Positions 2,005 to 58,604 of a stretch of 64,000 nt of DNA are shown in pieces. This DNA comes from Rathayibacter sp. VKM Ac-2760. Its GTDB lineage: Bacteria; Actinomycetota; Actinomycetes; Actinomycetales; Microbacteriaceae. Under the pieces are notes generated by a model. The model had not been told where the DNA came from. It saw only the letters and a list, made by a program, of their open reading frames with translations, and ran no database searches. A program made the position numbers and the translations under genes. The stretch covers positions 1,391,725 through 1,455,724 of the forward strand of contig NZ_CP047173.1 in the NCBI RefSeq assembly GCF_009834185.1, given 5' to 3'. Position 1 is the stretch's first letter; every line of letters begins with the position of its first letter.

Positions 2005-2080
2005 CTCGCGAGATGCCACTTGTGCGCGCTTTTCACGGCGTGTCGCGGGCACAAGTGGCATCTCGCGGGTGGGGGTCAGG
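2005..2080. repeat. palindromic REP-like element, family 1 copy 1 (CGCGAGATGCCACTTGTG...CACAAGTGGCATCTCGCG, then GGGTCAGG tail)
   Basis: Perfect inverted repeat of about 22 bp around an inner palindrome (CGACACGGCGTGTCG), directly after the FAH stop. Near-identical copies lie at 3995, 18133 and 58527. Confidence 0.85.
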
Positions 2081-2164
2081 TGTCGCAGCGGCGGGTGCTT
2101 CACCGTGCTCCCCGGAGCTGTCAAGCGGAGACGCTCGGCGGGGGTGGAGTCGTAGCGTCGAAGC

Positions 2165-3943
2165 ATGAGCTCGCCCCGCACGACCCGCAGCACCGAGACC
2201 ACCGCCACGAAGAAGAGCACCACGAAGAAGAGCACCACGAAGACGTCCGCCACGAAGAAGATCACCACCGCGAAGTCCGCCATGGCGAAGAAGAGCACCG
2301 CGACGAAGAGCACCCGCAGCACCGTCGATCGCATCGCCCGCGAGGACTTCGGCTGGACGTCGCTGCTGCCGGGGCAGCGCGAGGCCATCGAGTCGGCCGC
2401 CGCAGGGCGGGACACGCTGCTCGTGCTCGCGACGGGCGGCGGCAAGTCCGCGGTGTACCAGATCGCCGGTGCCGAGCGCGGGGGCGTCGTCCTCGTCGTC
2501 TCTCCGCTCGTCGCGCTCCAGGCCGACCAGCTCGCCTCGATCGGGGCCGCGCCGGCCGCGCCGCCCGCCGTCGCCGTCAACTCCGCCCAGGGCACCGCCG
2601 CCGTCGCGCGGGCCTGGGAGCGCATCGACGAGGGCGGCCCGCTGTACGTGCTGCTCGCTCCGGAGCAGCTGGCCAAGGAGGAGAACGTCGCGCGCCTCGC
2701 TGCGGCCGGCGTCTCGCTCCTGGTCGTCGACGAGGCGCACTGCGTCTCCTCCTGGGGCCACGACTTCCGCCCGGACTACCTGCGGCTGAAGGACGTCCGC
2801 AGCGCGCTGGGCGATCCGCCCGTGCTCGCGATGACCGCGACCGCCTCCCGACCGGTGCGCGAGGAGATCATCGAGCGCCTCGGCATGACCGACCCCGAGG
2901 TGCAGGTGCACGGGGTCGACCGCCCCGAGATCCGCCTCGTGGTGCACCGCCACGAGAGCGAGAACGAGAAGCGCACGGCCGTCGCCGAGGAGGCCCGCAG
3001 CTGGACGGCTCCCGGGCTGGTCTACGTGGCCACGCGCAAGGAGACCGAGACCTACGCGGCGGAGATCGCCGCCGAGGGCCGCTCCGTCGCGGCGTACCAC
3101 GCGGGGCTCAAGACGAGCGAGCGGCGCGACGTGCACCGGCAGTGGCGCGACGGCGAGCTGGACGTCGTGGTCGCGACCTCCGCCTTCGGGATGGGGATCG
3201 ACCGCGGCGACGTGCGCTTCGTGCTGCACGCGACGACGTCCGAGTCGCTCGATGCGTACTACCAGGAGATCGGGCGCGCCGGTCGCGACAGCGAGCCCGC
3301 GACGGCCGCACTGCACTACCGGCTCGAGGACCTGGGACTGCGGCGCTTCTTCGCGAAGCGCCGGGTCGAGCCGGCCGCGCTGCGGGTGGTGTGGGCGGCC
3401 GTGTCCGACAGGCCGGGCGTGCAGGTCGACGAGCTGGCGGAGGCGCTGGGCAAGTCGCCGCGCACCGTCGCGCGGCTGGTCAACGACCTGGCCGAGGCCG
3501 ACCTGCTCGAGACCGAGGGCGGCCTGCGGGCCGTCAGCGACGCGAGCGGCGACGCCGCCGTGCGCGCGGTGAAGGAGGAGCTCGCCTCGCGCGAGCGGAT
3601 CGCCGAATCGCGGCTGTCGATGATGCGCGCCTACGCCGAGACCTCGCAGTGCCGGCGGCGCGTGCTGCTCGACTACTTCGGCGTCGAGGGCCCGGAGTGG
3701 TGCGGCAACTGCGACGGCTGCGAGCGGCACGAGGCACGGCAGGAGGCGGCACAGGACGCTCCCGCCGATGCTCCGCTGAGCGTGGACGAGACGGTCGAGC
3801 ACCGCGCATGGGGCGCCGGCACCGTGATGAGCGTGGAGGACGACCGCGCGACGATCTTCTTCGAGACGGAGGGCTACAAGGTGCTGTCGTTCGCGGCGCT
3901 GGAGTCCGGAGTGCTGCGGGAGCGGGAGGCCGTCTCGGCGTAG
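2165..3943 (+). CDS. recQ: RecQ-family ATP-dependent DNA helicase with Lys/Thr-rich histone-like N-terminal tail
   Basis: DEAH box (LLVVDEAHCVSSWGHDFRPDY), helicase C motifs and a RecQ zinc-binding Cys cluster (CRRRVLLDYFG...CGNCDGC). The N-terminal 55 aa are KKSTT-type low-complexity repeats. Confidence 0.9.
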   Translation: MSSPRTTRSTETTATKKSTTKKSTTKTSATKKITTAKSAMAKKSTATKSTRSTVDRIAREDFGWTSLLPGQREAIESAAAGRDTLLVLATGGGKSAVYQIAGAERGGVVLVVSPLVALQADQLASIGAAPAAPPAVAVNSAQGTAAVARAWERIDEGGPLYVLLAPEQLAKEENVARLAAAGVSLLVVDEAHCVSSWGHDFRPDYLRLKDVRSALGDPPVLAMTATASRPVREEIIERLGMTDPEVQVHGVDRPEIRLVVHRHESENEKRTAVAEEARSWTAPGLVYVATRKETETYAAEIAAEGRSVAAYHAGLKTSERRDVHRQWRDGELDVVVATSAFGMGIDRGDVRFVLHATTSESLDAYYQEIGRAGRDSEPATAALHYRLEDLGLRRFFAKRRVEPAALRVVWAAVSDRPGVQVDELAEALGKSPRTVARLVNDLAEADLLETEGGLRAVSDASGDAAVRAVKEELASRERIAESRLSMMRAYAETSQCRRRVLLDYFGVEGPEWCGNCDGCERHEARQEAAQDAPADAPLSVDETVEHRAWGAGTVMSVEDDRATIFFETEGYKVLSFAALESGVLREREAVSA

Positions 3944-3994
3944 AGGCGGGGTCTCGAGACGCCGTCCTGCGGACGGCTGCTCGACCGGCAAGGC

Positions 3995-4073
3995 CACTCC
4001 GCGAGATGCCACTTGTGAGCGGGCGACACGGCGTGTCGCGCTCACAAGTGGCATCTCGCGGGAGGGGGTCAGG
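3995..4073. repeat. palindromic REP-like element, family 1 copy 2
   Basis: Same 22-bp arms and inner palindrome as copy 1. It lies between the convergent recQ and DUF2795 3' ends. Confidence 0.85.
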
Positions 4074-4260
4074 CCTGGGAGACGGCGGAGCTCACGTCGG
4101 TGGGCTTGTCGTAGTCGCCCTCGGGGATCGCGCGGAGGGCGTCGAGGACGTCGGCGCCGGCGCCCTGCTTCTCGGCGGCCTCGACGATGGTGTCCTTCGA
4201 GGCCGGGTAGTCGATCCCGGAGAGGTGCTTCTGGATCTCGATCGGGGTGGGTACAGCCAT
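4069..4260 (-). CDS. DUF2795-family small conserved protein
   Basis: 63-aa ORF (MAVPTPIEIQKHLSGIDYPASKDTIVEAAEKQGAGADVLDALRAIPEGDYDKPTDVSSAVSQA) with good codon bias. It is hidden inside a 541-aa shadow ORF in the track. Confidence 0.7.
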   Translation of the reverse strand: MAVPTPIEIQKHLSGIDYPASKDTIVEAAEKQGAGADVLDALRAIPEGDYDKPTDVSSAVSQA

Positions 4261-4325
4261 GGTGCTGTCCTTTCGTGGTGGTGCGGGGAGTGCTCCTCGG
4301 CGAGGAGCACGACGGAGCGAGCCGC

Positions 4326-5801
4326 TCAGGGCGTCGACGACGAGCGGATGCGCTGGACCATCTCGCTCGTGGAGTGCTCGGAGACGTAGCCCACCGTGGT
4401 GACGGTGCCGCCGTAGGAGCGGACGACCACCGCCTCCGCGAGCATGTCGGGGGCGTAGTCGCCGCCCTTCACGTAGACGTCGGGCCGCACGCGCTCGAGC
4501 AGCGGGATCGGGGTGTCGCCGCTGAACAGGGTGACGTAGTCGACGCAGCCCAGCTCGGCGATCACGCCCGCGCGGTCGCCCTCGGGGTTGATCGGGCGGC
4601 CCTCGCCCTTCAGCCGGCGCACCGAGTCGTCGTCGTTGACCGCGACGACCAGCACGTCGCCGAGCTCGCGCGCCTGGCGGAGGTAGGCGGTGTGGCCGCG
4701 GTGCAGCACGTCGAAGCAGCCGTTGGTGAAGACGATGCGGCGGCCGCGACGGGCCTGCTCGGCGAGCACCTCGACGAGGCCGTCCTCGCCGAGCACCACG
4801 GCGCCGGGGGCGGCGAGCGAGGCGAGCAGATCGTCCGCGGTGCAGACGGAGGTGCCGGGGCGCTGGACGACGACGTCGGCCGCGGCCTGCGCCAGGTCGA
4901 CGGCGGTCGCGAGCGAGCGGCCGGCGGCGAGGGCGAGAGTCGCGGTGGCGGCGAAGGTGTCGCCGGCTCCGGAGGCCTGCTTCTCCTCCGCGGGCTGGGC
5001 GAAGGTGCGGCTGACCGTGCCGTCGGCGTCGAGCGCGGTCGAGCCGTCGCGGTCGAGAGTGACCACGACGTGCCGGGCGCCGGAGCGCTCGCGCAGGCGG
5101 CCAGCCGCGGCGCGGACGGCGGCGGCGCGCTCGGCGCCGCGGCCGAGCGGAGTGCCGAGGAGGCGCTCCGCCTCCTTCGCGTTCGGGGTGACCAGGTCGG
5201 GCGCCGCGAAGGCCCAGTCGGCGAGCTCGTGCGCATCGATCACGAGGAGTCCGGGGCGCTGCACGGCGAGCACGCGCTCGATCGCGGCGCGGAGGATCCC
5301 GGAACCGTAGTCGCAGACGAGCACGGCGTCGGCGCCGTCGGCCGCGCGGACGGCGGCCTCGGCGAGCTCGGTCAGCTCGGGGTCGGACGGGCGGTGCGGA
5401 CCGGAGTCGACGCGCAGCATCACGCTGTCGCCGCCGACGACGCGGGTCTTGATCGTGGTCGAGGCGTCGCTCCGGACGATCGCGCCGGTGTCCAGGCCGG
5501 CGCGCTCGAGCGCGGCGAGGAGGCGGTCGCCCTCGGCGTCGCGGCCGGCGACCCCGACCGTGCGCACCTCGGCGCCGAGCGCCCGCAGGTTCGCCGCGGT
5601 GTTGGCCGCACCGCCGGCGACATCGACGACGTCCTCGAGGCGCAGCACGGGCGCGGGCGCCTCGCGGGTGACCCGCTCGGCCTCGCCGAGCCACCAGGAG
5701 TCGAGGATGAGGTCGCCGACGACGGCGACGACCGGCGGCCGCTCGCGCACGTGCGCGACCAGCGCGCTCGCCCGCTGCAGCGCGGAGCCCTCGAGGCTCA
5801 T
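4326..5801 (-). CDS. hldE: bifunctional D-glycero-beta-D-manno-heptose-7-phosphate kinase / heptose-1-phosphate adenylyltransferase
   Basis: N-terminal pfkB-type sugar kinase domain (VVGDLILDSWW...GAGDTF) plus C-terminal cytidylyltransferase-like domain (FTNGCFDVLHRGHTAYL...VNDDDSVRRLKG). ATGA overlap with the upstream ALDH gene. Confidence 0.9.
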   Translation of the reverse strand: MSLEGSALQRASALVAHVRERPPVVAVVGDLILDSWWLGEAERVTREAPAPVLRLEDVVDVAGGAANTAANLRALGAEVRTVGVAGRDAEGDRLLAALERAGLDTGAIVRSDASTTIKTRVVGGDSVMLRVDSGPHRPSDPELTELAEAAVRAADGADAVLVCDYGSGILRAAIERVLAVQRPGLLVIDAHELADWAFAAPDLVTPNAKEAERLLGTPLGRGAERAAAVRAAAGRLRERSGARHVVVTLDRDGSTALDADGTVSRTFAQPAEEKQASGAGDTFAATATLALAAGRSLATAVDLAQAAADVVVQRPGTSVCTADDLLASLAAPGAVVLGEDGLVEVLAEQARRGRRIVFTNGCFDVLHRGHTAYLRQARELGDVLVVAVNDDDSVRRLKGEGRPINPEGDRAGVIAELGCVDYVTLFSGDTPIPLLERVRPDVYVKGGDYAPDMLAEAVVVRSYGGTVTTVGYVSEHSTSEMVQRIRSSSTP

Positions 5802-7150
5802 CGCGCGCCGCCGGGCAGGACGGGGAGGCCGAAGTGCACGACCGTGGTCGTGGTCATCTCGTCGAGCAGCTCCGGGCCGTAGCCGAAGCCCGAGCCGCTG
5901 GTGCCGCGCGGCTGCGCGCTGCCGCCGGGGGCGCCGCCGAAGACGCCGTTGATCTTGACGGTGCCGACGGGGAGGGTCGCCGCGGCGCGGTGCGCGTGCT
6001 CCATGTCGGCGGTGAGCACGGTGGCTGCGAGGCCGTAGGGGCCGGCGGCGGCGCGGGTGAGCGCCTCGTCGAAGGAGTCGACGACGAGGATCGGGGCGAC
6101 GGGGCCGAAGGTCTCCTCGGTCATCACCAGCATCTCGTCGGTGCAGTCGGCGAGGACGGTAGCGGGGTAGAAGGTGCCGTCGCCGGGGGTGCCGCCGGTG
6201 AGGGCGCGGGCGCCGTCGGCGACGGCGGCGGAGACGTGCTCGTGCACGGCGTCGCGCATCCGCTCGTCGACCAGGCGGGGGAGGGGGCCGGCGCTCCAGC
6301 GCTCGGCCTCGGCGACCAGGGCGGCGGTGAAGTCCTCGGCGACGTCGCGGTGCAGGTAGATCCGCTCGACGGAGGTGCAGATCTGGCCCGCGTTGGCGAA
6401 GGCGCCGAGGGCGGCCTGCTCGGCGGCCCAGACCGGGTCGACGTCGCGGTCGACGACGAGCGCGTCGTTGCCGCCGTTCTCGAGGATGGTGTGCGCGCCG
6501 GTGACGGCGGCGATGCGGGCGAGGGCGCGGCCGGTGGCGGTCGAGCCGACGTGCGCGAGGACGTCGACGCCCTCGGTGCGGGCGAGGGCGTCGCCCACGG
6601 CGCCGTCGCCCTCGACCAGGGTCAGCACGCCCTCGGGGAGCGCCTCGGCGAGGATCGAGGTGAAGAGCGCGCCGGTGCCGGGGCTGCGCTCGCTGGGCTT
6701 GTGCACGACGACGTCGCCGGAGACGATCGCGGCGCCGAGCATCCCGGCGGCGACGGCGACCGGGTCGTTCCAGGGGGTGAGCGCGAGGACGACTCCGCGC
6801 GGGTGCGGCAGGGCGAGGTCGACGTTCAGGGCGCCGCCGCGCAGGCTCCTGCCGCGGTGCAGCGGGCCGAGCTCGGCGTACTGCAGCAGGGTGTCGACGC
6901 CGGCGCGGACGCCGCCGAGGGCGTCGCCGGCGGGCTTGCCGGTCTCCTCGGTGTTGAGGTCGGCGAGCTCCTGCTCGCGGGCGGCCACAGCGTGGGCGGC
7001 GGCGCGCAGCAGGGCGCCGCGCTCGGCGGGAGCGGTGGCGGCCCAGGTGGGGAAGGCGGCGCGGGCGCGGGAGACGGCGTCGGCGGCGAGGTCGGCGGGG
7101 GCGCCGGTGGTGCCGGCGGCGGGGGTCGCGGTGTCGATGGTCACGGTCAC
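5798..7150 (-). CDS. aldehyde dehydrogenase family protein
   Basis: ALDH motifs (LTPWNDP, ELGGNDA, catalytic C in GQICTSVERIY). Start is uncertain: GTG near 7144-7150 with a GAGAGG RBS, or ATG at 7240 which would run into repeat A. Confidence 0.85.
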   Translation of the reverse strand: MTVTIDTATPAAGTTGAPADLAADAVSRARAAFPTWAATAPAERGALLRAAAHAVAAREQELADLNTEETGKPAGDALGGVRAGVDTLLQYAELGPLHRGRSLRGGALNVDLALPHPRGVVLALTPWNDPVAVAAGMLGAAIVSGDVVVHKPSERSPGTGALFTSILAEALPEGVLTLVEGDGAVGDALARTEGVDVLAHVGSTATGRALARIAAVTGAHTILENGGNDALVVDRDVDPVWAAEQAALGAFANAGQICTSVERIYLHRDVAEDFTAALVAEAERWSAGPLPRLVDERMRDAVHEHVSAAVADGARALTGGTPGDGTFYPATVLADCTDEMLVMTEETFGPVAPILVVDSFDEALTRAAAGPYGLAATVLTADMEHAHRAAATLPVGTVKINGVFGGAPGGSAQPRGTSGSGFGYGPELLDEMTTTTVVHFGLPVLPGGAR

Positions 7151-7237
7151 CTCTCGGTCGGAGGCGTCCGCAGGGGTCGCGGACGCTGATGCCCTCGTCC
7201 GATACCCGCGCGGCGGCGGCTCAAACGGATGGCTCGT

Positions 7238-7310
7238 CACAACATCAGCTGAGAAGGCGACTCATCGCCGATGAGCGATGAGCCCCCGATTCAGCTGATG
7301 TTCTGCGGCC
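7238..7310. repeat. palindromic element, family 2 copy A (ACAACATCAGCTGAGA ... TCAGCTGATGTTCTG)
   Basis: About 16-bp inverted arms around a loop that is itself palindromic (CTCATCGCCGATGAG). It lies between the GNAT/AIRS gene stop and the ALDH start. Four more copies lie elsewhere. Confidence 0.8.
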
Positions 7311-7320
7311 GCCGAGTGCG

Positions 7321-8706
7321 TCAGGCCGCGCCGAGGCGGGTGACGGCGGAGGTGATCGCCGGGGTGCTCGCGCCGTCGGGCCAGCGGAGGGTGACGCCCT
7401 CGCCGGGGACGACGCGGCCGATGGCGGCGGTGGCGCTGTGCGGGGTGCCCATCCGGGAGGCGCCGGGGCGGTCGGCGGTGAGCATCGCGAAGCCGGGGAA
7501 GCAGGAGAGCCAGTCGGCGAGGCCGGCGGCGGAGGGGCGGGGGATCGCGGCGACCTCGAGCTCGGCACCCGCCCCGGACGCCTCCGCGAGCATGCCGACG
7601 GTGCCGACGAGCCCGGCCATGCTGACGTCCTTCGCGCCGTCGGGAGCGCAGGCGCCGACGCTCGCAGCGAGGGCGCGGAGCACCTCCGGCGGGCGGCCGG
7701 AGGTCGAGTCCCACTGCAGTCCCGCGTAGCCCGGGCGCCACGCGCCGGAGAGGTCGGCGGTCAGGCTCAGCTGGTGTCCGATCGGGGCGCTGCCCGGGAC
7801 CGGGCGCGCGGTGCGGCCGAGGCCGGTGACCGAGAGCGCGGCGGGCACTCCGAGCTGGGTGTGGCCGCCGAGCAGTGGCACGCCCCAGGCCTCGCTGCCG
7901 GCGCGCAGGCCGCGGAGGATGCGGGCGGCGAAGGAGGCGTCCCGCGCGCCGACCGCGTCGAGCAGGCCGACCGGATCGGCGCCCATCGCGGTGAGGTCGT
8001 TGACGTTGACGAGCACCGAGCACCAGCCCGCCCACTCCGGGTCGCGCTCGACCATCGAGGGGACGATCGCGTCGCAGACGGCGACGAGGTCGGAGCCGGG
8101 GACGGGCGCGCCGTCGTCGCCGCGGAAGCCCGGGCCGCCGAGCTGGCCGGCGAACGCGTCGAGCAGCGGACCGAGGGCGGCCTTGGCCCCGCGAGCGAGG
8201 CGGTCGAAGCGGTCGATCGGCCAGCGCATCCGCACGTGCGGGACGCCGGCCACCTCCGCCGTGCCGAGGCGGTCCCAGCCGAGCCGGCGGAAGAGCACCT
8301 CGTTCTGGGTCTGCACCGTCGCCTCGAAGCGGAGCACGCCGCGCGCCTCGGCCTCGGCGCAGGCGGCCCGGACCAGCGCGGCACCGAGGCCGGCGCCGCC
8401 GCGGGCGCTGCGGCGGACGACCAGGCGACTGCCGGTCCACCAGCCCAGATCGTGCTCCAGCGCGGGCGCGATCCGCACGCCACCGAGCACGCCGTCGGCC
8501 GAGCGCGCGACCAGGACGACCGTGCGCGGATCCTCGTCGAGAGTGTCGCGGTCGTCGGCGTCGAAGAGGCCCTGCTCGGCGACGAAGACCTCGCGGCGCA
8601 GCGCCCGGTAGGCGGCCACCTCGGCCGGGTCCGCGACCACGACCACGAAGGCCTCGCGGGCAGCCGGCGCGACCGCGCGGACCCCCTCGAGGATCGAGAG
8701 CTGCAT
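7321..8706 (-). CDS. GNAT acetyltransferase / AIR-synthase-related fusion protein (MSMEG_0567-type)
   Basis: 461 aa. The N-terminal half is a GNAT acetyltransferase fold and the C-terminal half is an AIR-synthase-related (PurM-like) domain. ATGA overlap with the radical SAM gene. Confidence 0.85.
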   Translation of the reverse strand: MQLSILEGVRAVAPAAREAFVVVVADPAEVAAYRALRREVFVAEQGLFDADDRDTLDEDPRTVVLVARSADGVLGGVRIAPALEHDLGWWTGSRLVVRRSARGGAGLGAALVRAACAEAEARGVLRFEATVQTQNEVLFRRLGWDRLGTAEVAGVPHVRMRWPIDRFDRLARGAKAALGPLLDAFAGQLGGPGFRGDDGAPVPGSDLVAVCDAIVPSMVERDPEWAGWCSVLVNVNDLTAMGADPVGLLDAVGARDASFAARILRGLRAGSEAWGVPLLGGHTQLGVPAALSVTGLGRTARPVPGSAPIGHQLSLTADLSGAWRPGYAGLQWDSTSGRPPEVLRALAASVGACAPDGAKDVSMAGLVGTVGMLAEASGAGAELEVAAIPRPSAAGLADWLSCFPGFAMLTADRPGASRMGTPHSATAAIGRVVPGEGVTLRWPDGASTPAITSAVTRLGAA

Positions 8707-9851
8707 CAGGCGCCGGCGGTCTTCAGCACGCCGCAGGCGCCGCAGGCCGCGCAGCCCGCCTTCTGGCCGGAGGAGAGCATCCCCGCCGCGATCAGCAGCG
8801 CGGCGACCTGCTCGCTCACCTTCTCCAGCAGCGAGCCGGCCGGCGGCAGGACGTGGTCCACCTCCGTCGCGAGCGTGCCCCTGAGCGGCCGGAACGGCAC
8901 CACGAACGGGTAGATCCCGCGCTCGATCAGCTCGCCGGCGCTCGCGACCAGCTCGTCGGGATCCTCGCCGAGGCCGACGAGCAGGTAGGTCGAGACCTGG
9001 TTGCGGCCGAAGATCCGCACCGCCTCGTCCCAGGCCTCCCAGTACTTCGCGGTCGAGACGCGCGCCTTGCCGGGGGTCCAGCGGCGGCGGATGTCGTCGT
9101 CCATCGACTCGATGTGGATGCCGATCGAGAGGGCGCCGGCGTCCTTCAGCTCCTGCAGCGCGGCGAGGTCCTCCGGCGGCTCGCACTGCACCTGGATCGG
9201 CAGCCCGGGCACGGCCTCGAGCACAGCGCGGACGCAGCGGGCGAGGTGCCGGGCGCCGCGGTCGCGACCCTTCGAGGTGCCGGTGGTCATCACCATCTGG
9301 CGGATGCCGTCCAGCCGGGCGGCTGCCTCGGCGACCTCGGCGAGCTGCGCGGGGGTCTTCACGGCGATGGTGGAGTCGTTGGCGAGCGAGGCCTCGATCG
9401 CGCAGAAGCGGCAGCGCTCGGCCGCGTCGTAGCGCATGCAGGTCTGCACGACGGTGGTGGCGAGGATGTTCCGGCCGTGCAGGCGGGCGATCTTCTCGTA
9501 GGAGACGCCGTCGGCGGTGCTGAGGTCGTAGAAGCGCGGGCGCTTCACCGGCTCCACGTCGAGGCCGATGTCGGCGCCGTCGAGCAGGAGCCGGCCGTTG
9601 GTCACGGCGTAGGGGCTCTTCGGGTTGACGGGGATGGCGGCGCCGAGGCCGCCGAGCATCACGTGGCCGTCGTCGCTCGGGCCGGCGCCCGCCTCGCGGT
9701 GCACGGGGGCGTCGACGCGGATGCCCTGCAGGGCGATGTCGACGCGGGTGCGCAGGGCGGACGGGGCGGCTCCGCAGCCGGAGTCGGCGGGAGCGGTGTC
9801 GGTCGGGGCACTGTCGATGGTGCGGAGGCGGGGCATCTGCAGGTCGGTCAT
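8706..9851 (-). CDS. radical SAM protein, MSMEG_0568 family
   Basis: 381 aa with a Cys-rich radical SAM core (CxxxCxxC-like: RCRFCAIE) and a C-terminal CAACGACG cluster. It is the first gene of a minus-strand operon diverging from the Sll0783-type operon. Confidence 0.85.
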   Translation of the reverse strand: MTDLQMPRLRTIDSAPTDTAPADSGCGAAPSALRTRVDIALQGIRVDAPVHREAGAGPSDDGHVMLGGLGAAIPVNPKSPYAVTNGRLLLDGADIGLDVEPVKRPRFYDLSTADGVSYEKIARLHGRNILATTVVQTCMRYDAAERCRFCAIEASLANDSTIAVKTPAQLAEVAEAAARLDGIRQMVMTTGTSKGRDRGARHLARCVRAVLEAVPGLPIQVQCEPPEDLAALQELKDAGALSIGIHIESMDDDIRRRWTPGKARVSTAKYWEAWDEAVRIFGRNQVSTYLLVGLGEDPDELVASAGELIERGIYPFVVPFRPLRGTLATEVDHVLPPAGSLLEKVSEQVAALLIAAGMLSSGQKAGCAACGACGVLKTAGA

Positions 9852-9928
9852 GGTGCTCCTCGGATTCTCGAGTCGAGCGGTGCGCGACGGCGAGTCCGAC
9901 GTCGTGAGCCTCCATTAGGTCAACGCGG

Positions 9929-9975
9929 TGTTTCGGAGCGATGACATCGGGAACGCGATCGTGTTACATCCGGCG
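9929..9975. promoter_or_regulatory. candidate GlnR-type operator in the divergent promoter (GTAAC-n6-GCGTTC-n5-GTCAT-n6-GAAAC read on the minus strand)
   Basis: Two half-site pairs matching the actinobacterial gTnAc-n6-GaAAc pattern, in the 378-bp gap between the radical SAM and Sll0783-family genes. This is inference only. Confidence 0.3.
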
Positions 9976-10229
9976 GCCGCCCCGGAGCCCGCCCGGCGTC
10001 ACGCAGGCTTCTTCTGGCCGAAACCACTTCGAAACACGAGCGGCCTTGACTGGACGCAGTCGGGACGAACGCTCCCGACCCGGCCCCGTCGCTCCGCTCG
10101 CCCTCGAACCGCCCCGAGCGACGCCGGCCTCTGCATCACAGCACCGCCCGTTCCACCCGGCACTCCTGTCCCTGCACCACTCGCTCGCGCCCCGCCCGGC
10201 GCGCTCCTCACCGAACCCCGGAGGTTCCC

Positions 10230-10799
10230 ATGACCGACGACCAGACCACCCCCGCCGACGTCAGCACGGACGACCAGGCCGCGATCGAAGAGCAGATCAG
10301 CGCCAACATCGAGAAGTCGCGCGGCGAGATCGCGCACCCCTCGCTGCCCAAGGGCAGCAACCTCTACGGCTCCACCAAGGTCTTCCCCGACTACCAGGCC
10401 GAGCCCGGGCAGTCCTACTTCACCCTCGTGCACGGCATCGCGCACGAGTCCTCGGTCAGCTTCGTCGCGATCCTGCAGGCGACCCGCGCGGCCCGCAAGG
10501 GCTTCGAGTCGGCCGTCTACTTCTACGGCCCCGGCACGATCAACGCGATGGCGACCCGTGGCTTCCCGACGGTCGGCGACTCCGGCTTCCCGGGGGAGCA
10601 GAACATCAACGACGCCCTGAAGACCTTCATCGACGAGGGCAACCGCGTCTTCGTCTGCCGCTTCGGCATGGCGCTGCACGGCCTGCGCGAGGAGGACCTG
10701 ATCGAGGGCACCATCCCCTGCCACCCGCTCGACGTGCAGGACGCCGTCATCCACTACGCCCGCAAGGGCGCCATCATCAACTCGACCTACAACCTCTAG
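10230..10799 (+). CDS. MSMEG_0572 / Sll0783-family nitrogen-starvation-response protein
   Basis: 189 aa. It is the first gene of a plus-strand operon, with an RBS GGAGG upstream. Family assignment is from recalled family knowledge and gene context (Nit, small protein, FAD oxidoreductase, GT downstream). Confidence 0.75.
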   Translation: MTDDQTTPADVSTDDQAAIEEQISANIEKSRGEIAHPSLPKGSNLYGSTKVFPDYQAEPGQSYFTLVHGIAHESSVSFVAILQATRAARKGFESAVYFYGPGTINAMATRGFPTVGDSGFPGEQNINDALKTFIDEGNRVFVCRFGMALHGLREEDLIEGTIPCHPLDVQDAVIHYARKGAIINSTYNL

Positions 10800-10808
10800 G
10801 CCGCCGCC

Positions 10809-11687
10809 ATGACCGTCGTCGGATCGGTCGCGGCGAACTTCACCCGCGACCTCGATCAGAACTACGCGCTCATCGCCGCGCTGGCCGAGGAGGCCCGGGA
10901 GAAGCGGGTCGAGTTCCTCGTCCTGCCCGAGGCCGCGATCGGCGGCTACCTCTCCTCGCTCGGCAATCACGGCGACACCGTCAAGACGACGACCCGATCG
11001 ATGCCACCGGCGATCGCGCTGGACGGGCCGGAGCTGCGCCGGGTGCAGGAGATCGCGGGCGACCTGCTGGTCGCGATCGGCTTCTGCGAGCTCGACGAGG
11101 ACGGCGAGACCCGCTACAACGCGGCCGCCCTGCTCGACGGCGGGCAGATCTACGGCAGCTACCGCAAGGTGCACCAGCCGCTCGGCGAGCACATGTCCTA
11201 CTCGCCCGGGCCCGGCTACTCGGTCTTCGAGACGCCGGTCGGCCGGGTCGGGCTGCAGATCTGCTACGACAAGGCCTTCCCGGAGGCGGCCCGCTCGATG
11301 GCGCTGGACGGGGCGGAGATCATCGCCTCGCTCTCGGCCTGGCCGGCCGCGCGGACGGCGACGGCGGAGAACCTGCAGGAGGACCGCTGGACCTACCGCT
11401 TCAACCAGTTCGACATCGCGCGGGCCCTGGACAACCAGGTGTTCTGGCTGGCGTCGAACCAGTCCGGCACCTTCGGGTCGCTCCGCTACGTGGGCAACGC
11501 GAAGGTCGTCGATCCGGGCGGCAACATCCTCGCGACGACGCTGCTCGGCTCCGGCATGGCGGTCGCCGACATCGACGTGCGGGGCACCTTCGAGGCGATG
11601 CGCGGCGGGATGTTCCACCTGCGCGACCGCCGGCCGGACGCCTACGACATCGACCGCGTCTGGAGCGGAGGGCTGGTCCATGCCTGA
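10809..11687 (+). CDS. carbon-nitrogen hydrolase (nitrilase/Nit superfamily)
   Basis: Intact E-K-C triad context (LVLPEAAIGGY, YRKVH, GLQICYDKAFPE). Confidence 0.85.
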   Translation: MTVVGSVAANFTRDLDQNYALIAALAEEAREKRVEFLVLPEAAIGGYLSSLGNHGDTVKTTTRSMPPAIALDGPELRRVQEIAGDLLVAIGFCELDEDGETRYNAAALLDGGQIYGSYRKVHQPLGEHMSYSPGPGYSVFETPVGRVGLQICYDKAFPEAARSMALDGAEIIASLSAWPAARTATAENLQEDRWTYRFNQFDIARALDNQVFWLASNQSGTFGSLRYVGNAKVVDPGGNILATTLLGSGMAVADIDVRGTFEAMRGGMFHLRDRRPDAYDIDRVWSGGLVHA

Positions 11688-12000
11688 GATGACCTTCCAC
11701 GTCCGCTGGCCGGACGGCGTCGAGGAGCGCTGCTACTCGCCGAGCCTGGTGATGCACGACTACCTCGCCGAGGGCGAGAGCTATCCGCTCGAGGACTTCG
11801 TCGGGCGCTCGACCGAGGCGCTGCGGCTGGCCAGCGAGCGGGTGCGCGCGAAGTTCGGCTTCGCCTGCACCTCCGCGCTGCAGCAGGAGTCGGAGATCGT
11901 CGCGGCCGCCGCGCGCTTCGACGGCGGGCGGGTGCGGGTGCTGGCGATGGATCCGCCGCTGCCGTCCGCTGCTCCGACCGTGCAGGGGACGCGCGCATGA
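11680..12000 (+). CDS. small conserved protein, MSMEG_0570-like
   Basis: 106 aa. It overlaps the upstream stop by 8 nt and the downstream start by 4 nt. Position and size match the small cluster member. Confidence 0.65.
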   Translation: MPEMTFHVRWPDGVEERCYSPSLVMHDYLAEGESYPLEDFVGRSTEALRLASERVRAKFGFACTSALQQESEIVAAAARFDGGRVRVLAMDPPLPSAAPTVQGTRA

Positions 12001-13271
12001 CCGCGCTCGAGAACGGCCGGCACCTGCCGGTCGCCGTGATCGGCGCCGGTCAGGCCGGGCTGTCGATCAGCCGCCTGCTCACGGACGAGGGCGTCGAGCA
12101 CCTCGTGATCGAGCGCGACACGATCGCGCACGACTGGCTCGACCGCCGCTGGGACAACTTCACCCTCGTCACGCCGAACTGGCAGTGCCGGCTCCCGGGT
12201 TACCCCTACGACGGCGACGACCCGCACGGCTTCATGACCCGCGACGAGGTGCACGCCTGGGTGCGGCGCTACGCGGAGTCGTTCGACGCTCCGGTCGTGG
12301 AGGACACCGAGGTGCTGCGGCTGCGCGAGGGCGCGGACGGGGCCTTCGAGATCGTCACCTCGCGCGGCACGATCACGGCCGACCAGGTCGTCGTCGCGAC
12401 CGGCGGCTACCACCGGCCGGTGCTGCCGGCGGTCGCGCACCGCATCCCGGACTCGGTCGTGCAGCTGCACTCGGCCGACTACCGCTCGGCCGCGGCGCTG
12501 CCCGAGGGCGGGGTGCTCGTGGTCGGCTCCGGCCAGTCCGGCGCGCAGATCGCGGAGGACCTCTTCCTCGAGGGGCGCGCCGTGCACCTGGCGCTGGGGA
12601 CCGCTCCGAGAGTCGCCCGGTTCTACCGCGGGCGGGACTGCGTCGCGTGGCTCGCCGACATGGGCGTCTACGACGTGCCGGTGCACGCGCAGGTGGGCGG
12701 GCTCTCGAAGCGGGAGTCGACCAATCACTACGTCACCGGGCGCGGCGGCGGGCGGGATATCGACCTGCGGGCGTTCGCGCGCGACGGGATGCACCTCTAC
12801 GGGCGGCTGCAGCAGGTCGACGGTGCGTCGCTCCGGTTCGCGCCGACGGCCGAGGCGTCGCTCGACTACGCGGACTCGGTCGCCGAGTCGATCAAGAACG
12901 ACATCGACGCCTACATCGAGCGCTCGGGCGTGCAGGCGCCGACCGAGGCCCGCTACACCCCGGTCTGGCGGCCGGAGCGCGAGATCGAGGAGCTGGACCT
13001 GGCGGCCGCCGGGATCACGAGCATCGTCTGGGCGGTCGGCTTCCGCGCCGACTACTCCTGGATGCAGATCGGCGTCTTCGACGGCGCCGGGCACCCCACC
13101 CACCGCCGCGGCGCGACCGCGGTGCCGGGGCTGCACTTCCTCGGGCTGCCGTGGCTGAACACCTGGGGCTCCGGCCGCTTCGAGGCGATCGCGCGGGATG
13201 CGGAGCACGTGGTGCAGCAGCTGCTCGGCGGCGCGCGGTTGGACCGGTTCGAGGGCGCCGCGGTACGGTGA
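11997..13271 (+). CDS. FAD-dependent oxidoreductase (flavin monooxygenase-like), MSMEG_0569-type
   Basis: Two Rossmann dinucleotide motifs (VIGAGQAG and VVGSGQSG) typical of class B flavoprotein monooxygenases. Confidence 0.85.
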   Translation: MTALENGRHLPVAVIGAGQAGLSISRLLTDEGVEHLVIERDTIAHDWLDRRWDNFTLVTPNWQCRLPGYPYDGDDPHGFMTRDEVHAWVRRYAESFDAPVVEDTEVLRLREGADGAFEIVTSRGTITADQVVVATGGYHRPVLPAVAHRIPDSVVQLHSADYRSAAALPEGGVLVVGSGQSGAQIAEDLFLEGRAVHLALGTAPRVARFYRGRDCVAWLADMGVYDVPVHAQVGGLSKRESTNHYVTGRGGGRDIDLRAFARDGMHLYGRLQQVDGASLRFAPTAEASLDYADSVAESIKNDIDAYIERSGVQAPTEARYTPVWRPEREIEELDLAAAGITSIVWAVGFRADYSWMQIGVFDGAGHPTHRRGATAVPGLHFLGLPWLNTWGSGRFEAIARDAEHVVQQLLGGARLDRFEGAAVR

Positions 13272-13352
13272 CGGCCGCGCGCTCGCCCCGGGCGCGCCTC
13301 CGGCCGCTCGTCCGGCCGCTCGTCCGGCCGGGCGGGGCGAGAGAAGAGGACC

Positions 13353-14207: not shown

Positions 14208-14278
14208 CCCGGCCGGCCTGCCCGCCCGGCTGCCCGGCCCCGCTGCCCACCCGCCCGCTCGATCGAGAAGGAGACCCC

Positions 14279-16800: not shown

Positions 16801-16847
16801 GCAGCCGCGCAGGCGGGGCCCGCGAGTGGCCGCCGCCCGCAGGTCGC

Positions 16848-46025: not shown

Positions 46026-46096
46026 ACAGAACATCAGCCGGGAGCGGACCTCCTCCACCATCGTGGACGAGGTCGCTTCTCAGCTGATCTTGTGAA
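46026..46096. repeat. palindromic element, family 2 copy D (minus-strand orientation)
   Basis: Minus strand reads CACAAGATCAGCTGAGAAG...CCACGATGGTGGAGGAGGTC...CGGCTGATGTTCTG. It lies between convergent gene ends. Confidence 0.8.
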
Positions 46097-46120
46097 GCCG
46101 TCCGCCCCTGCCGGCCGTCC

Positions 46121-47095: not shown

Positions 47096-47227
47096 GCCGC
47101 GATGCTACGCCGCGCGCGTCCGGCGGCCCTCCGTTCGATCTGCAGGCGGTCCGGGCCGTCGCGCGACCGGACGCACGGCGGAGGGCCCTTTCCCGGCGGG
47201 ATCGCCTGCAGATCGGACGGCGGCCGC

Positions 47228-56648: not shown

Positions 56649-57079
56649 CGCGCGGCGTCCGGGGTCAGGAGGCGCCGCCGCGGCTGTCGTGGCCGGGGTC
56701 GAACGCGACGGGGGAGAGCCCGTCGCTCCGGATCGCGAGCGCGAGCGGGAGGGCGAGCGCGGTGAGCAGGACGGCGGTGAGGAGGGTGAGCAGGAGGAGC
56801 ATGAGGGGTCCGATCTCGAGGTGATGCTCCGAGAGTGGACCCGTCCACTTGTCCGCGGGGCTCGAGGAGCAGTCCACTTCGGCCGGTCCGGTCCATCCCC
56901 GTCCGGCCGCGCCAAGGTGGACTGCTCGGCTGGAGCCCCGGCGTAGGCTGGCCCCGCAGTCCGCGGACCCCCTGCACCCTTCGGGGCCGCACGACGACAG
57001 CGATGGAGCTGACGTGACCTCCGCCTCGACCACCCTCCCCGAGAGCATCGACCCGCCGAGCCGGCCGGAAGGACCCCCT

Positions 57080-58519
57080 GTGAACGGCGCCACCCGCACC
57101 GAGACCGACTCGCTCGGCCCGCTCGACATCCCGGCCGACGCCTACTGGGGCATCCACACCGCCCGGGCCCTGGACAACTTCCCGATCTCGAAGCGCCCGA
57201 TCTCGATCTACCCGGACCTCGTCCGCGCGCTGGCGACCGTCAAGCTCGCGGGGGCCCGGGCGAACACGGAGATCGGCAGCCTCGCCCCGGCGAAGGCCGA
57301 GCTGATCGAGCAGGCCTGCCGCCGGATCATCGACGGCGAGTTCCACGACCAGTTCGTGGTCGGTGTCATCCAGGGCGGCGCCGGCACCTCGACGAACATG
57401 AACGCGAACGAGGTCGTCGCCAACGTCGCCCTCGAGATCGCCGGCCGGCCCAAGGGTGACTACGCCTTCCTGCACCCCCTCGACGACGTGAACCGCAGCC
57501 AGTCCACCAACGACGTCTACCCGACGTCGATCAAGATCGCGATGACCTGGTCGCTGCGCCGGCTGCTCGACGAGCTCGCCCTCCTCCAGGCCTCGTTCTC
57601 GCGGAAGGCCGTCGAGTTCGGCAGCGTCCTCAAGGTCGGCCGGACGCAGCTGCAGGACGCGGTGCCGATGACCCTCGGCCAGGAGTTCCACGGCTTCGCC
57701 ACCACGCTCGGCGAGGACCACGCGCGCCTCTCCGAGACGATCTGGCTGCTCGCCGAGGTCAACATCGGCGCCACCGCGATCGGCACCGGCATCACCGCCG
57801 ATCCGCGCTACGGCGCCGCCGCCGTCCGCCACCTCAACGAGCTGACCGACCTCGACCTCGAGATGGCGCAGGACCTGGTCGAGGCGACCAGCGACGCCGG
57901 CGTCTTCATGTCGTTCTCGAGCGCGCTGAAGCGCTCGGCGATCAAGCTCTCCAAGATCTGCAACGACCTCCGCCTGCTCTCCTCGGGCCCGCAGGCCGGC
58001 TTCGGCGAGCTCAACCTGCCGCCGCGCCAGGCCGGCTCGAGCATCATGCCCGGCAAGGTGAACCCGGTGATCCCCGAGGTCGTCAACCAGGTCGCCTACT
58101 CGGTGGCCGGCGCCGACGTCACCGTGACCATGGCGGCCGAGGCCGGCCAGCTGCAGCTCAACGCCTTCGAGCCGGTGATCGCGCACTCGCTGCTGCAGTC
58201 GATCACCTGGATGACCCAGGCCTGTCTCACGCTCCGGATCAACTGCATCGACGGCGTCACCGCCAACGTCGACCGGCTGGAGGCGATGGTCGCCTCCTCG
58301 GTCGGCGTGGTCACCGCGCTGACCCCGAGCATCGGCTACACCGCGTCGGCGGCCCTCGCGAAGGCGGCGCTCGCCACCGGGCGCAACGTCGCCGACCTGG
58401 TGGTCGAGGCCGGTCTGATGTCGCGCGAGGAGGTGCTGCGGCTCATCTCACCCGCGCGCCTCTCCGGCATCGAGGCGATGACCGCGTCCCTCCCGATCAT
58501 CGAGCCGACGCCGGAGTAG
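57080..58519 (+). CDS. aspA: aspartate ammonia-lyase
   Basis: Fumarase/aspartase signature GSSIMPGKVNPV and an AspA-like N-terminus (DSLGPLDIPADAYWGIHT). GTG at 57080 with a GGAAGGA RBS. An in-frame GTG at 57014 is an alternative start. Confidence 0.9.
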   Translation: MNGATRTETDSLGPLDIPADAYWGIHTARALDNFPISKRPISIYPDLVRALATVKLAGARANTEIGSLAPAKAELIEQACRRIIDGEFHDQFVVGVIQGGAGTSTNMNANEVVANVALEIAGRPKGDYAFLHPLDDVNRSQSTNDVYPTSIKIAMTWSLRRLLDELALLQASFSRKAVEFGSVLKVGRTQLQDAVPMTLGQEFHGFATTLGEDHARLSETIWLLAEVNIGATAIGTGITADPRYGAAAVRHLNELTDLDLEMAQDLVEATSDAGVFMSFSSALKRSAIKLSKICNDLRLLSSGPQAGFGELNLPPRQAGSSIMPGKVNPVIPEVVNQVAYSVAGADVTVTMAAEAGQLQLNAFEPVIAHSLLQSITWMTQACLTLRINCIDGVTANVDRLEAMVASSVGVVTALTPSIGYTASAALAKAALATGRNVADLVVEAGLMSREEVLRLISPARLSGIEAMTASLPIIEPTPE

Positions 58520-58526
58520 TCCGGCC

Positions 58527-58604
58527 CACTCCGCGAGATGCCACTTGCGCGCGCCTTCCTCGGCGTGTCGCGCTCACAAGTGGCATCTCGCGGAGAGGTG
58601 CAGG
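58527..58604. repeat. palindromic REP-like element, family 1 copy 4
   Basis: CGCGAGATGCCACTTG...CACAAGTGGCATCTCGCG, between convergent aspA and adaA-alkA. The alkA-frame stop codon TGA lies inside the element. Confidence 0.85.

Follow-up and report, generated by a model that had tools for sequence, protein, structure and literature searches.

Four copies of one hairpin in the window

A stretch of 64,000 nucleotides of Rathayibacter sp. VKM Ac-2760 (the window, meaning the whole DNA analysed) carries four similar intergenic hairpins at gene ends. Do these hairpins belong to a dispersed repeat family, and what would such a family do there? We found that they are true members of an undescribed family of short palindromic repeats in Rathayibacter and related bacteria; the family is new, and the kind of repeat is familiar. 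By inference, its likeliest role is that of a hairpin serving the 3' ends of mRNAs from either strand.

Each copy accounts for two occurrences of the 15-mer CGCGAGATGCCACTT or its reverse complement, and these eight are the only ones in the window, even when three mismatches are allowed. With a covariance model of 129 family members, we obtained exactly four matches in the window at 84-90 bits, and the next one, an unrelated hairpin, scored 23.5 bits. The arm count and the model agree, and confirm the four places named in an earlier note on this DNA. The asymmetric tip puts all four copies in the plus orientation, with minus-strand scores about 20 bits lower. Folded as RNA from either strand, the copies have energies of -61 to -95 kcal/mol (z-scores -6 to -11).

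Copy 1: extended hairpin 1991-2085, core 2007-2067, plus strand; covariance model 2000-2074, 88.7 bits; fold energy -71.6 kcal/mol (plus strand) and -61.1 (minus strand)
Copy 2: extended hairpin about 3985-4078, core 4000-4060, plus strand; covariance model 3993-4067, 84.4 bits; fold energy -73.3 and -66.7 kcal/mol
Copy 3: extended hairpin 18108-18223, core 18135-18195, plus strand; covariance model 18128-18202, 85.0 bits; fold energy -94.7 and -89.1 kcal/mol
Copy 4: hairpin about 58516-58609, core 58532-58592, plus strand; covariance model 58525-58599, 89.5 bits; fold energy -64.4 and -62.7 kcal/mol

The gene contexts proposed for the four copies were borne out by Pfam. Copy 1 lies in a tandem context, with FAH upstream and a RecQ-like gene next (2165, plus strand), and the FAH stop codon TGA (1997-1999) is inside the base of its stem. 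Copy 2 is between the convergent RecQ-like gene (end 3943, plus) and a small DUF2795 gene (end 4069, minus), whose stop (4069-4071) falls within the G-rich flank of the copy. Copy 3 is between GT9 (stop 18109-18111, plus) and an SDR gene (end 18244, minus), also convergent. At copy 4, an aspartase-type lyase (stop TAG 58517-58519, plus) and ada/alkA (minus) face each other. Copy 4 had been proposed to donate the alkA stop codon. This holds once a 2-bp frameshift near 58940 is corrected, and not otherwise; the corrected alkA ends in WRSYAALHLSARCHL and a stop, with the last six codons and TGA (58574-58576) supplied by the copy.

Orthologous sites were found for copy 1 (L111:5797, Rathayibacter sp. 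VKM Ac-2856), copy 2 (L111:2945 and L001:6560, with inner sequences 94% identical to copy 2) and copy 3 (L084:3954). The site in Ac-2857 (L053) orthologous to copy 4 has two copies, 87 nt apart.

Anatomy and extent of the family

The core is 61 nt (61-63 nt) and consists of two 15-nt arms in the arrangement CGCGAGATGCCACTT-N31-AAGTGGCATCTCGCG, usually flanked by a C-rich tract on the 5' side and a G-rich tract on the 3' side. Several details of the earlier note need correction. What all four window copies share is CGCGAGATGCCACTT...GGCGTGTCGCG...AAGTGGCATCTCGCG; the 7-8 nt beside each arm differ, and the tail GGGGTCAGG is a G-rich tract and not a conserved sequence. Contrary to the claim of perfect hairpins, the inner stem of copy 4 has three mismatches. 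Likewise, the inner palindrome CGACAC..GTGTCG is present in copies 2 and 3 (in copy 2 as the complete tip palindrome CGACAC-GGC-GTGTCG) and absent from copies 1 and 4, where the sequence opposite the invariant GGCGTGTCG is CTTTTCAC and CCTTCCTC, respectively.

A scan of one genome per species, with a pattern that required the exact arm pair and allowed spacers of 15-45 nt, yielded at least 152 copies in at least 120 blocks, which upholds the view of a dispersed REP-like family. Hosts among the matches listed were Rathayibacter, Naasia, Parafrigoribacterium and two further Microbacteriaceae or Actinomycetota. Arm spacing was constant, with the same 55-nt arm-to-arm length in 146 of the 152 copies. 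The motif GGCGTGTCG was invariant on one side of the tip only; this motif and the flanking CGC/GCG, all outside the search pattern, were each identical in 98% or more of 128 distinct Rathayibacter copies. The tip motif was not enriched outside the elements (7 occurrences versus about 13 for permuted motifs). In Naasia the interior was wholly replaced (TCCGTCCCTAT...ATAGGGACGGA), with arms and 31-nt spacing as elsewhere. Several other, unrelated palindromic families occur in these genomes too, even at the very same site.

Placement after stop codons

Copies were found between convergent genes in 53% of cases versus a 21% baseline, and between divergent genes in 5% versus 19%. This bias in gene context was strong (chi-square p = 3e-23). 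A gene 3' end was at most 60 nt away in 116 of 134 copies, and the distance from core to stop codon was 7-31 nt, most often 10, on 146 of 187 end-facing sides. The element is placed almost only just past stop codons, and fills nearly the entire gap between convergent genes. Orientation relative to the upstream gene showed a weak bias (31 versus 19, p = 0.12). The family is clearly neither restricted to the four window copies nor free of positional bias. The enrichment at 3' ends could, however, merely reflect where insertions are tolerated.

The very stable structures, with the z-scores given above, might also come from independent small-RNA genes or a known class of structured RNA. We consider this extremely improbable, since Rfam gave no above-threshold match for the element (only generic miRNA-precursor hairpins below threshold), no promoter-like signal was seen, the tight fit between stop codons leaves the copies no space for a promoter of their own, and their orientation is not fixed.

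Possible termination without a U-tract

No U-tract follows any of the window copies, and canonical terminators composed of a hairpin and a T-tract were all but missing over the window's first 20 kb. The missing U-tract rules out a canonical terminator. Purified mycobacterial RNA polymerase runs past hairpins without U-tracts in vitro (PMC3993855); this polymerase is from another high-GC actinobacterium. It is unlikely that the element acts as a self-sufficient intrinsic terminator.

A bidirectional terminator could instead depend on a factor, a protein that reads the arm and the GGCGTGTCG tip on nascent RNA and halts or releases the polymerase, in a lineage without U-tract terminators. Factor-dependent termination was proposed by Gardner et al. 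(2011, the RNIE paper; PMC3152330) for TRIT, the "Tuberculosis Rho-independent terminator" of Mycobacterium. This palindromic motif has 147 copies in M. tuberculosis and a narrow placement relative to the stop codon; it is mostly bidirectional because it is palindromic, and conservation of the sequence itself led to the suspicion of a binding factor (PMC3152330). The Rathayibacter element has a TRIT-like placement beside stop codons, an invariant, though one-sided, tip motif and no canonical terminators nearby. Its arm sequence and 31-nt spacing are identical across genera despite the replaced interior in Naasia, but the cross-genus identity of the arms was imposed by the search pattern. The one-sided tip would be shown to just one of two converging transcripts, yet both orientations occur (31 versus 19). 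There is no known candidate factor, and regulatory sites that are maintained independently would not be expected to show the recent copying of identical cores described below. We therefore regard a factor-dependent terminator as quite improbable.

Paired substitutions in the stem

The inner stem is variable and changes by paired substitutions. Copy 3 has a compensated A-T pair, CTTATGAG/CTCATAAG, in place of G-C. This compensatory change, pointed out in the earlier note, is real and family-wide: double-change cells numbered 186, against 95.6 +/- 11.4 in shuffles, none of 500 shuffles reached 186, and slid controls gave 35-46.

Selection on the RNA stem, which had been offered as a possible cause, was not indicated. 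Among mismatches on the transcribed strand, G-U (18) was as frequent as A-C (18), so that RNA-level selection on individual copies is not visible. Copying at the DNA level followed by neutral decay suits the equal counts at least as well.

Copying, retention and possible gene exchange

A 61-nt core with 100% identity was found at six loci in Ac-2857 and at four in Ac-2856, ten in all, in unrelated flanks, and the similarity ended abruptly at the core edge. Identical cores within unrelated flanks indicate that a discrete unit is copied. A copy was also kept at most of the orthologous sites examined across species. Both this retention and the conservation of the arms are inflated by ascertainment, because the loci were picked by the exact arm pair. 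Some orthologous sites carried different inner subtypes despite about 89% identical flanks; presence and absence at the same site, differing copy numbers and arrays with two or three copies in tandem were also observed. In relatives lacking the element (L069, L099), an unrelated hairpin occupied the site. No offset showed a target-site duplication, and about 1 Mb of DNA contained neither solo arms nor a parent insertion sequence. No Y1/RAYT match was found in about 1 Mb of related DNA, which is a weak test.

These observations bear on whether the element is selfish, that is, non-autonomous REPIN- or MITE-like DNA that accumulates at harmless sites without benefit to the host, its arms and tip motif being bound by a transposase whose gene lies at another place in the genome. 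The ten identical cores, the tandem arrays, the species-specific subtypes with swaps at orthologous sites, and the disruption and re-termination of the alkA ORF by a copy would all fit such an element, as would the other palindromic families in the same genomes, and equal G-U and A-C counts are expected when copies born perfect decay neutrally. However, transposase, solo arms (both in about 1 Mb) and target duplications were not found, and the spacing to stop codons keeps to a very narrow range on either side. Arms were intact at orthologous sites whose flanks are just 82-90% identical, a contrast inflated by ascertainment, and the other hairpin at element-less sites suggests a need for some hairpin at these places. 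On balance we hold a purely selfish element to be rather unlikely.

Genes have come and gone beside some copies. In L037 an MNT/HepT toxin-antitoxin pair is bracketed by two direct copies, and the matching R. toxicus site has a single copy and lacks the pair. L017 has a 270-aa gene and one copy that are missing in L108, where the single copy joins the outer flanks of both L017 copies. These three loci suggest recombination at the copies, and the element might be a DNA-level site, bound or cleaved as duplex or cruciform (for example by gyrase or a nucleoid protein) or used for recombination, which would relieve supercoiling between converging genes or let neighbour genes come and go. Pairing that is symmetric on both strands and the strong preference for convergent pairs are consistent with it, and there is a precedent in E. 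coli, where BIME/REP clusters bind gyrase and IHF. Nevertheless, cases of gene gain and loss are few and ordinary homologous recombination between repeats suffices for them; most flanking genes belong to the conserved core and keep their order; a Pfam scan of a few element-flanked genes revealed no recombinase or integrase beside copies; and half-sites 31 bp apart would be unusual for a duplex-binding protein. A DNA-level site appears very doubtful.

The explanation we favour, with moderate confidence, is a copied palindromic core that has spread after stop codons and probably marks and protects mRNA 3' ends on both strands. It may spread through some hairpin-recognising enzyme or by gene conversion among copies. 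If copying requires the hairpin and the arms, both the covariation and the invariance of the arms would be accounted for. Given its near-symmetry, the element would provide a transcript from either side with a 25-45-bp stem right past its stop codon. Such a stem would mark and protect the mRNA 3' end as a barrier to 3' exonucleases, and would insulate converging transcripts from each other. By analogy with REP and mycobacterial TRIT, 3'-end protection and insulation is the most likely function.

Comparison with known repeats

The closest analogue is the TRIT motif, compared here by its published description. Both are many-copy, sequence-conserved palindromic hairpins of a single actinobacterial lineage, without the usual U-tract logic. 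TRIT has been reported only in Mycobacterium and is centred about 8 nt inside the CDS, whereas in the Rathayibacter family the stop is outside the core, at a distance of 7-31 nt. The Rathayibacter family further differs in its constant 31-nt interior, one-sided tip motif, C-rich and G-rich flanks, and clear recent copying of identical cores.

REP/BIME and REPIN-RAYT elements of Proteobacteria are likewise high-copy extragenic palindromes with 3'-end and convergent enrichment, tandem clusters, and long vertical persistence plus occasional spread. Proposed roles of REP are protection of mRNA 3' ends and, near stop codons, attenuation of transcription or translation. The REP-likeness suggested by the earlier note stands for dispersal and 3'-end bias and fails for the defining GTAG tag: the Rathayibacter family has an actinobacterial host, no GTAG/CGTC terminal tag and no RAYT in about 1 Mb, and its unit is one 61-nt hairpin rather than a palindrome of 20-40 nt or a pair of these. 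A classical REP was ruled out by the missing tag and by the lack of a RAYT in that 1 Mb.

Palindromic MITEs (Correia/CREE of Neisseria, ERIC/IRU of enterobacteria) are similar in being short and non-coding, with inverted-repeat ends, long hairpins once transcribed and subfamilies with different interiors; often co-transcribed with neighbour genes, they can act as sources of terminators or processing sites. The Rathayibacter element is much shorter and of fixed length, and lacks target-site duplication and, in about 1 Mb, solo arms or a parent IS. A classical MITE was ruled out by the lack of target duplication and of solo arms in that 1 Mb.

The "I-shaped" hairpins without U-tracts, put forward as terminators in high-GC Actinobacteria, failed to show self-sufficient termination when purified mycobacterial RNA polymerase was used (PMC3993855). 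They also have a GC-rich stem directly after the gene and a strand-symmetric shape. Their sequence is unique to each gene, whereas the Rathayibacter family is one repeated sequence.

The four copies in the window

Four copies of a hairpin element had been claimed in the window by the earlier note, and direct inspection of the sequences, arm counts and a covariance model agreed that they exist. The window has exactly eight occurrences of the arm 15-mer CGCGAGATGCCACTT and its reverse complement, a pair in each copy, and no further arm match was found there with up to three mismatches allowed. A repeat finder placed copies 1-4 in one family (D4). The covariance model, trained on 129 relatives of the window copies, matched the window exactly four times at 84-90 bits, and the next match was an unrelated hairpin at 23.5 bits. 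Scores on the minus strand were about 20 bits lower because the hairpin tip is asymmetric. No Rfam family (Rfam 15) was found in the window at gathering, E-value or permissive thresholds.

Covariance-model matches in the window, with neighbouring genes assigned by Pfam
2000-2074, + strand: copy 1, tandem, between a FAH hydrolase gene (+, ends 1999) and a RecQ-like helicase gene (+, 2165-3943)
3993-4067, + strand: copy 2, convergent, between the RecQ-like helicase gene (ends 3943) and a 63-aa DUF2795 gene (-, stop at 4069)
18128-18202, + strand: copy 3, convergent, between a GT9 glycosyltransferase gene (+, ends 18111) and a short-chain dehydrogenase gene (-, ends 18244)
58525-58599, + strand: copy 4, convergent, between an aspartase-type lyase gene (+, ends 58519) and an ada/alkA gene (-)

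The gene neighbours were those named before. Both arms and, on the tip's 3ʹ side, GGCGTGTCGCG were common to all four copies; the inner palindrome CGACAC/GTGTCG, which had been described as shared, was present in copies 2 and 3 only. The description as a perfect hairpin had to be dropped, as the inner stem of copy 4 carried three mismatches, and the supposed conserved tail sequence was actually a G-rich tract.

Copies 1 and 2 flank the RecQ-like gene, an arrangement that recurs in Rathayibacter sp. VKM Ac-2856. The N-terminus of its product (window 2165-2310) is Lys-rich and of low complexity, encoded by 15-nt repeats (ACGAAGAAGAGCACC...).

A dispersed family in Rathayibacter and related genomes

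Related genomes were scanned, one per species, with a pattern of the two arms separated by any spacer of 15-45 nt, which gave at least 120 eight-kb blocks (denoted by L numbers below). The matches listed included eleven Rathayibacter genomes: VKM Ac-2856, Ac-2857, Ac-2879, Ac-2754, Leaf185, the window's organism, R. toxicus, R. tritici, R. tanaceti, R. iranicus and R. agropyri. Other genomes with matches listed were Naasia, Parafrigoribacterium, a Microbacteriaceae strain and a metagenome-assembled genome of Actinomycetota. Across long stretches, the window was 91-94% identical to Ac-2856 and Ac-2857, which makes its source a close relative within Rathayibacter. A tolerant search of the blocks found at least 152 copies, with at least 48 and at least 39 in two genomes, and thus the family is dispersed well beyond the four copies, as had been proposed. 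The arm-to-arm distance was exactly 55 nt in 146 of the 152 copies listed, a constancy that was not dictated by the search pattern.

Two architectures with common arms were recognized. In the Rathayibacter type, the inner stem varies, GGCGTGTCG is present at a single side of the tip, and the flanks are C-rich at the 5ʹ end and G-rich at the 3ʹ end. The Naasia type has a very different interior, TCCGTCCCTAT-loop-ATAGGGACGGA, and the C/G-rich flanks are absent.

The element matched neither viral contigs nor plasmids. A literature search with an arm 12-mer returned only three studies, all on human or mouse and unrelated, and Rathayibacter genome papers made no mention of such repeats. We concluded that the element family is real and, within reach of our searches, not described before, and that it joins a known class, the palindromic repeats at gene 3ʹ ends.

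Position relative to genes

Genes were called by a self-trained codon-usage model, which was checked on Pfam-verified genes of the window. The bias to gene 3ʹ ends and convergent pairs that the four copies had suggested was confirmed in the family (chi-square p = 3e-23).

Arrangement of the genes around intergenic regions
Convergent: 21% of all 785 intergenic regions, 53% of element-holding regions
Tandem: 60% of all 785 intergenic regions, 42% of element-holding regions
Divergent: 19% of all 785 intergenic regions, 5% of element-holding regions

A gene 3ʹ end was located at most 60 nt away in 116 of 134 Rathayibacter-type copies. On the sides facing a gene end, the stop codon lay 7-31 nt from the core in 146 of 187 cases, most commonly at 10, so the element fills nearly the whole of a convergent gap; the median convergent gap was 97 nt where an element was present and 77.5 nt where it was absent. 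Placement is near-exclusive just after stop codons. We considered whether TGA/TCA was part of the element itself and rejected this: sides facing no gene end had no TCA beyond chance, which indicates that the stop codons belong to the genes.

Orientation was at most weakly tied to the upstream gene: among tandem copies, 31 had the tip motif on the transcribed strand and 19 had it on the opposite strand (p = 0.12). Same-orientation runs over hundreds of kb were seen in contigs of Ac-2857 (n2) and Ac-2856 (n2). In the former, copies were mostly on the + strand between 0.2 and 0.97 Mb and on the - strand on either side. Replication direction or the local orientation of genes could account for these runs, which were seen under sparse sampling.

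The alkA end at copy 4

The earlier note had also stated that copy 4 donates the stop codon of the alkA-like gene. In the long alkA ORF (58497-60059), the codon-position signal was gone below about 58950, and the true C-terminus was found in a second frame (...WRSYAALHLSARCHL*), with the last six codons and the TGA (58574-58576) inside copy 4. Compared with Ac-2857 (L053), the ada/alkA-like gene of the window (58574-60059, - strand) has a 2-bp deletion near 58940 that splits the ORF; either the gene is a pseudogene or the sequence contains an error. The intact alkA ORF of Ac-2857 runs through its own adjacent element and acquires a different C-terminal tail. From the frame analysis and this comparison, copy 4 lies inside alkA, at its very 3ʹ end, and the element does donate the stop after frameshift correction, though not for the uncorrected ORF. 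The elements generate false ORF extensions, as for alkA in the window and in L053.

Conservation and covariation of the hairpin

The consensus of 128 distinct copies begins with CGCGAGATGCC and finishes with GGCATCTCGCG. The arms were at least 98% conserved across the family and exact in all four window copies. Together with the arms, the flanking CGC/GCG and the tip motif were near-invariant; invariance of the arms was partly imposed by the search, while that of CGC/GCG and the tip motif was not.

Covariation was tested for a 30-pair hairpin on a gap-free alignment of the 128 copies. Standard pairs were present in 88% of cells. Cells changed on both sides numbered 186. Shuffles gave 95.6 +/- 11.4, with 186 not attained in any of 500, and slid controls gave 35-46 such cells. 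The covarying pairs were the seven adjoining the arms, with distributions such as G-C 78 / A-T 21 / C-G 4 and C-G 47 / A-T 26 / T-A 19.

The C-rich and G-rich flanks are able to pair but did not behave as a copy-specific extension of the stem. Own flanks paired hardly better than the flanks of other copies (mean score 3.95 vs 3.36), so flank pairing is compositional rather than covariation. The C-then-G polarity was also examined as a general trait of intergenic hairpins, and thus as a pre-existing target. This was not supported, since both orders were equally frequent in element-free intergenic regions (C-to-G vs G-to-C, 14 vs 12 in convergent and 42 vs 42 in tandem gaps), and the polarity is thus particular to the element.

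Folded as RNA, both strands of the window copies reached -61 to -95 kcal/mol, with z of -6 to -11, and no U-run follows any of the four. If individual copies were selected for RNA pairing, G-U mismatches should exceed A-C mismatches. They numbered 125 and 106 overall, and 18 and 18 on the transcribed strand of tandem copies, so neither such selection nor a strand-specific form of it was visible. We take the covariation above all as a constraint on those lineages that undergo copying, although part of it could have arisen without selection, by template-switch correction of quasi-palindromes.

Copying, presence or absence, and possible recombination of the element

Most comparable orthologous sites held a copy in both species, also when VKM strains were compared with R. 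toxicus or R. tritici, where the flanks were 82-90% identical; the sample was biased by the choice of blocks for holding a copy. Some copies kept a locus-specific interior between orthologues (window copies 2 and 3 vs L111, L001 and L084, 94%), which argues for their vertical descent. Other orthologous copies had very different interiors, matching non-orthologous copies of their own genome (45% between L089 and L096). The 61-nt core was 100% identical at ten loci of Ac-2856 and Ac-2857, with similarity that stopped sharply at the core edges. Therefore, the element is a discrete unit of 61-63 nt and constant length that has been copied between loci, by transposition or conversion.

Some orthologous sites were empty or were occupied differently. 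R. agropyri was without a copy present in R. tritici and R. iranicus, and Ac-2879 was without one found in Ac-2856. At two sites, a relative had an unrelated hairpin in the element's place; one of the two is the FAH site of window copy 1, at which R. tritici had a member of a different repeat family. Copy number also varied at the same site: there was one copy in the window and two in Ac-2857 at the site of copy 4, and one in L112 and three in L075 at another.

Two loci differed by gene(s) plus one copy. In one, an MNT/HepT toxin-antitoxin pair was located between two direct copies (L037:4487-5302 vs L047:2410), and R. toxicus had a single copy and no pair. In the other, a 270-aa gene and one copy were present in Ac-2857 and absent in Ac-2856 (L017:260-1335 vs L108:535). 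The single copy of Ac-2856 in L108 unites the outer flanks of the two Ac-2857 copies in L017, the expected trace of recombination between copies. Such differences indicate recombination between copies or cassette-like gain.

We searched for traces of a mobile parent. Direct repeats of 2-6 nt at boundary offsets of 0-11 were not in excess over shuffled partners, so that no target-site duplication was detected. No solo arms as expected from a parent insertion sequence were found: 301 of 302 arm matches were in complete hairpins, the remaining one was a decayed copy, and the window had none. In tblastn with approximate sequences of IS200 TnpA, IS608 TnpA and E. coli RAYT, no Y1/RAYT-type transposase was found, with no match better than E = 2 in 1.02 Mb of loci and the window, at low sensitivity and over about a tenth of each genome.

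The sole nuclease-like gene found adjoining copies encodes a protein of 292 aa whose C-terminal domain is DUF559 / MTES_1575 (Vsr-like endonuclease) and is located between two copies in four Rathayibacter genomes (L042:4360-5238, L089:6253-7131, L096:3497-4360 and L082:2-343). It was rejected as a possible partner of the element, as paralogues were absent in the loci and it was one of about twenty bracketed stretches. Consecutive tandem genes each with a copy at the 3ʹ end produce such bracketing, which is probably a coincidence here.

Comparison with known repeat classes

REP sequences, to which the element had been likened, are imperfect palindromes of about 20-40 nt with a terminal tag GTAG (CGTC in some families), and their cognate RAYT gene, encoding a Y1 HUH transposase, is usually single-copy and repeat-flanked. 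Like REPs and REPINs, the element is extragenic, has many copies per genome, and is enriched at 3ʹ ends and convergent pairs. It differs in that its ends lack GTAG or CGTC and that the unit is 61 nt long with a 15-nt non-palindromic arm. It is a single hairpin whose arms are not palindromes, whereas a REPIN consists of two inverted REP palindromes as a mobile doublet. With MITEs, which are derived from DDE transposons, the element shares terminal inverted repeats, but neither a target-site duplication nor, in the at least 120 blocks and the window, a parent element was found. Integron attC sites mark the 3ʹ ends of mobile cassettes that are arrayed beside an integron integrase. The element is instead flanked by conserved housekeeping genes in the same order between species, the cassette-like cases being anecdotal.

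The nearest described system is TRIT of Mycobacterium, with which the element was compared by description (PMC3152330). TRIT comprises 147 conserved palindromic copies, mostly bidirectional and very narrowly positioned relative to stop codons; a binding factor is suspected, and the authors reported it in Mycobacterium only (PMC3152330). The element likewise has a conserved palindromic sequence, forms a mostly bidirectional hairpin and keeps to a narrow range of distances from the stop codon, and is the same kind of object as TRIT; the likeness is in working only and does not imply homology.

Possible function

Classical hairpin-plus-U terminators are largely absent in high-GC Actinobacteria, where the ending of transcripts is debated. 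In window 1-20000, canonical hairpin-plus-T-run terminators were essentially absent: three were found, all within genes, against a chance expectation of 1.8, and copies 1-3 were not flagged in the consensus scan. No sigma-70 consensus promoter was found in the same region, which is typical of these bacteria. The element resembles a canonical intrinsic terminator in its GC-rich hairpin and differs in its G-rich tails, where a terminator has a U-rich tract of 7-9 nt. Purified mycobacterial RNA polymerase did not terminate at hairpins without U, even with NusA and NusG (PMC3993855).

The hairpin would form a 3ʹ-end structure on transcripts of either strand. The earlier note had proposed a bidirectional terminator or an mRNA stabiliser. 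Given the missing U-tract and the mycobacterial polymerase result, we favour a role as exonuclease barrier and insulator over self-sufficient termination. Termination that depends on a factor, as suspected for TRIT, is less likely, and so is a role at the DNA level. A serious rival to the exonuclease barrier is a purely selfish repeat, which would be harmless at its sites; the copied unit and the lack of visible RNA-pairing selection in individual copies are consistent with it. Because the element is sequence-conserved, symmetric and only nucleotides away from the stops of convergent pairs, it is a natural test case for transcript ending, and exonuclease barrier, factor-dependent terminator and harmless parasite can be distinguished by experiment.

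The arms and tip may be recognized by whatever copies the element. A rather improbable reading is that the arms, the 31-nt spacing and the one-sided GGCGTGTCG tip are the recognition site of a dedicated putative protein common to Rathayibacter, Naasia and relatives. Such a partner could be a nuclease or recombinase other than a RAYT, copying the 61-nt hairpin to sites just after stops, or it could bind the hairpin as RNA or DNA and end transcription both ways in a lineage without U-tract terminators. If true, this would give Actinobacteria a new repeat-plus-partner system, and the TRIT-type terminators, to our knowledge unexplained, would gain a tractable model.

As a repeat family alone, the element is unsurprising, and it would gain interest if a partner protein or a role in termination were demonstrated. 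The elements break assemblies and mark sites of recombination and of gene gain or loss, and they could be used to type strains of Rathayibacter, to which the select agent R. toxicus belongs.

Other repeats in these genomes

A tandem array of at least nine units of 92 bp, 69-90% identical and built on inverted motifs of the TTCGGCTCGCGGAAA type, was found at window 27257-28292. Motifs of this family were also present at the FAH 3ʹ end of R. tritici (L099, about 206-414), which is the site of window copy 1, and in L063, L101, L074 and L002. A second palindromic family with arms CACAACATCAGCTGAGA / TCTCAGCTGATGTTGTG was located at window 7245-7330, 16842-16926 and 46030-46110, with a related sequence at 37561-37648, and also in L001, L041, L065 and L113. 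A large inverted repeat was present at window 47108-47243. In element-free intergenic regions, the repeat CATGCTGATCGAGTAGCCCGCGCAGCGGGCGTATCGAGA was found in L018, L019, L025, L030 and L001, in some cases as inverted pairs (e.g. L025:4324-4642), and as it adds a further family, these genomes contain at least four distinct families of intergenic repeats.
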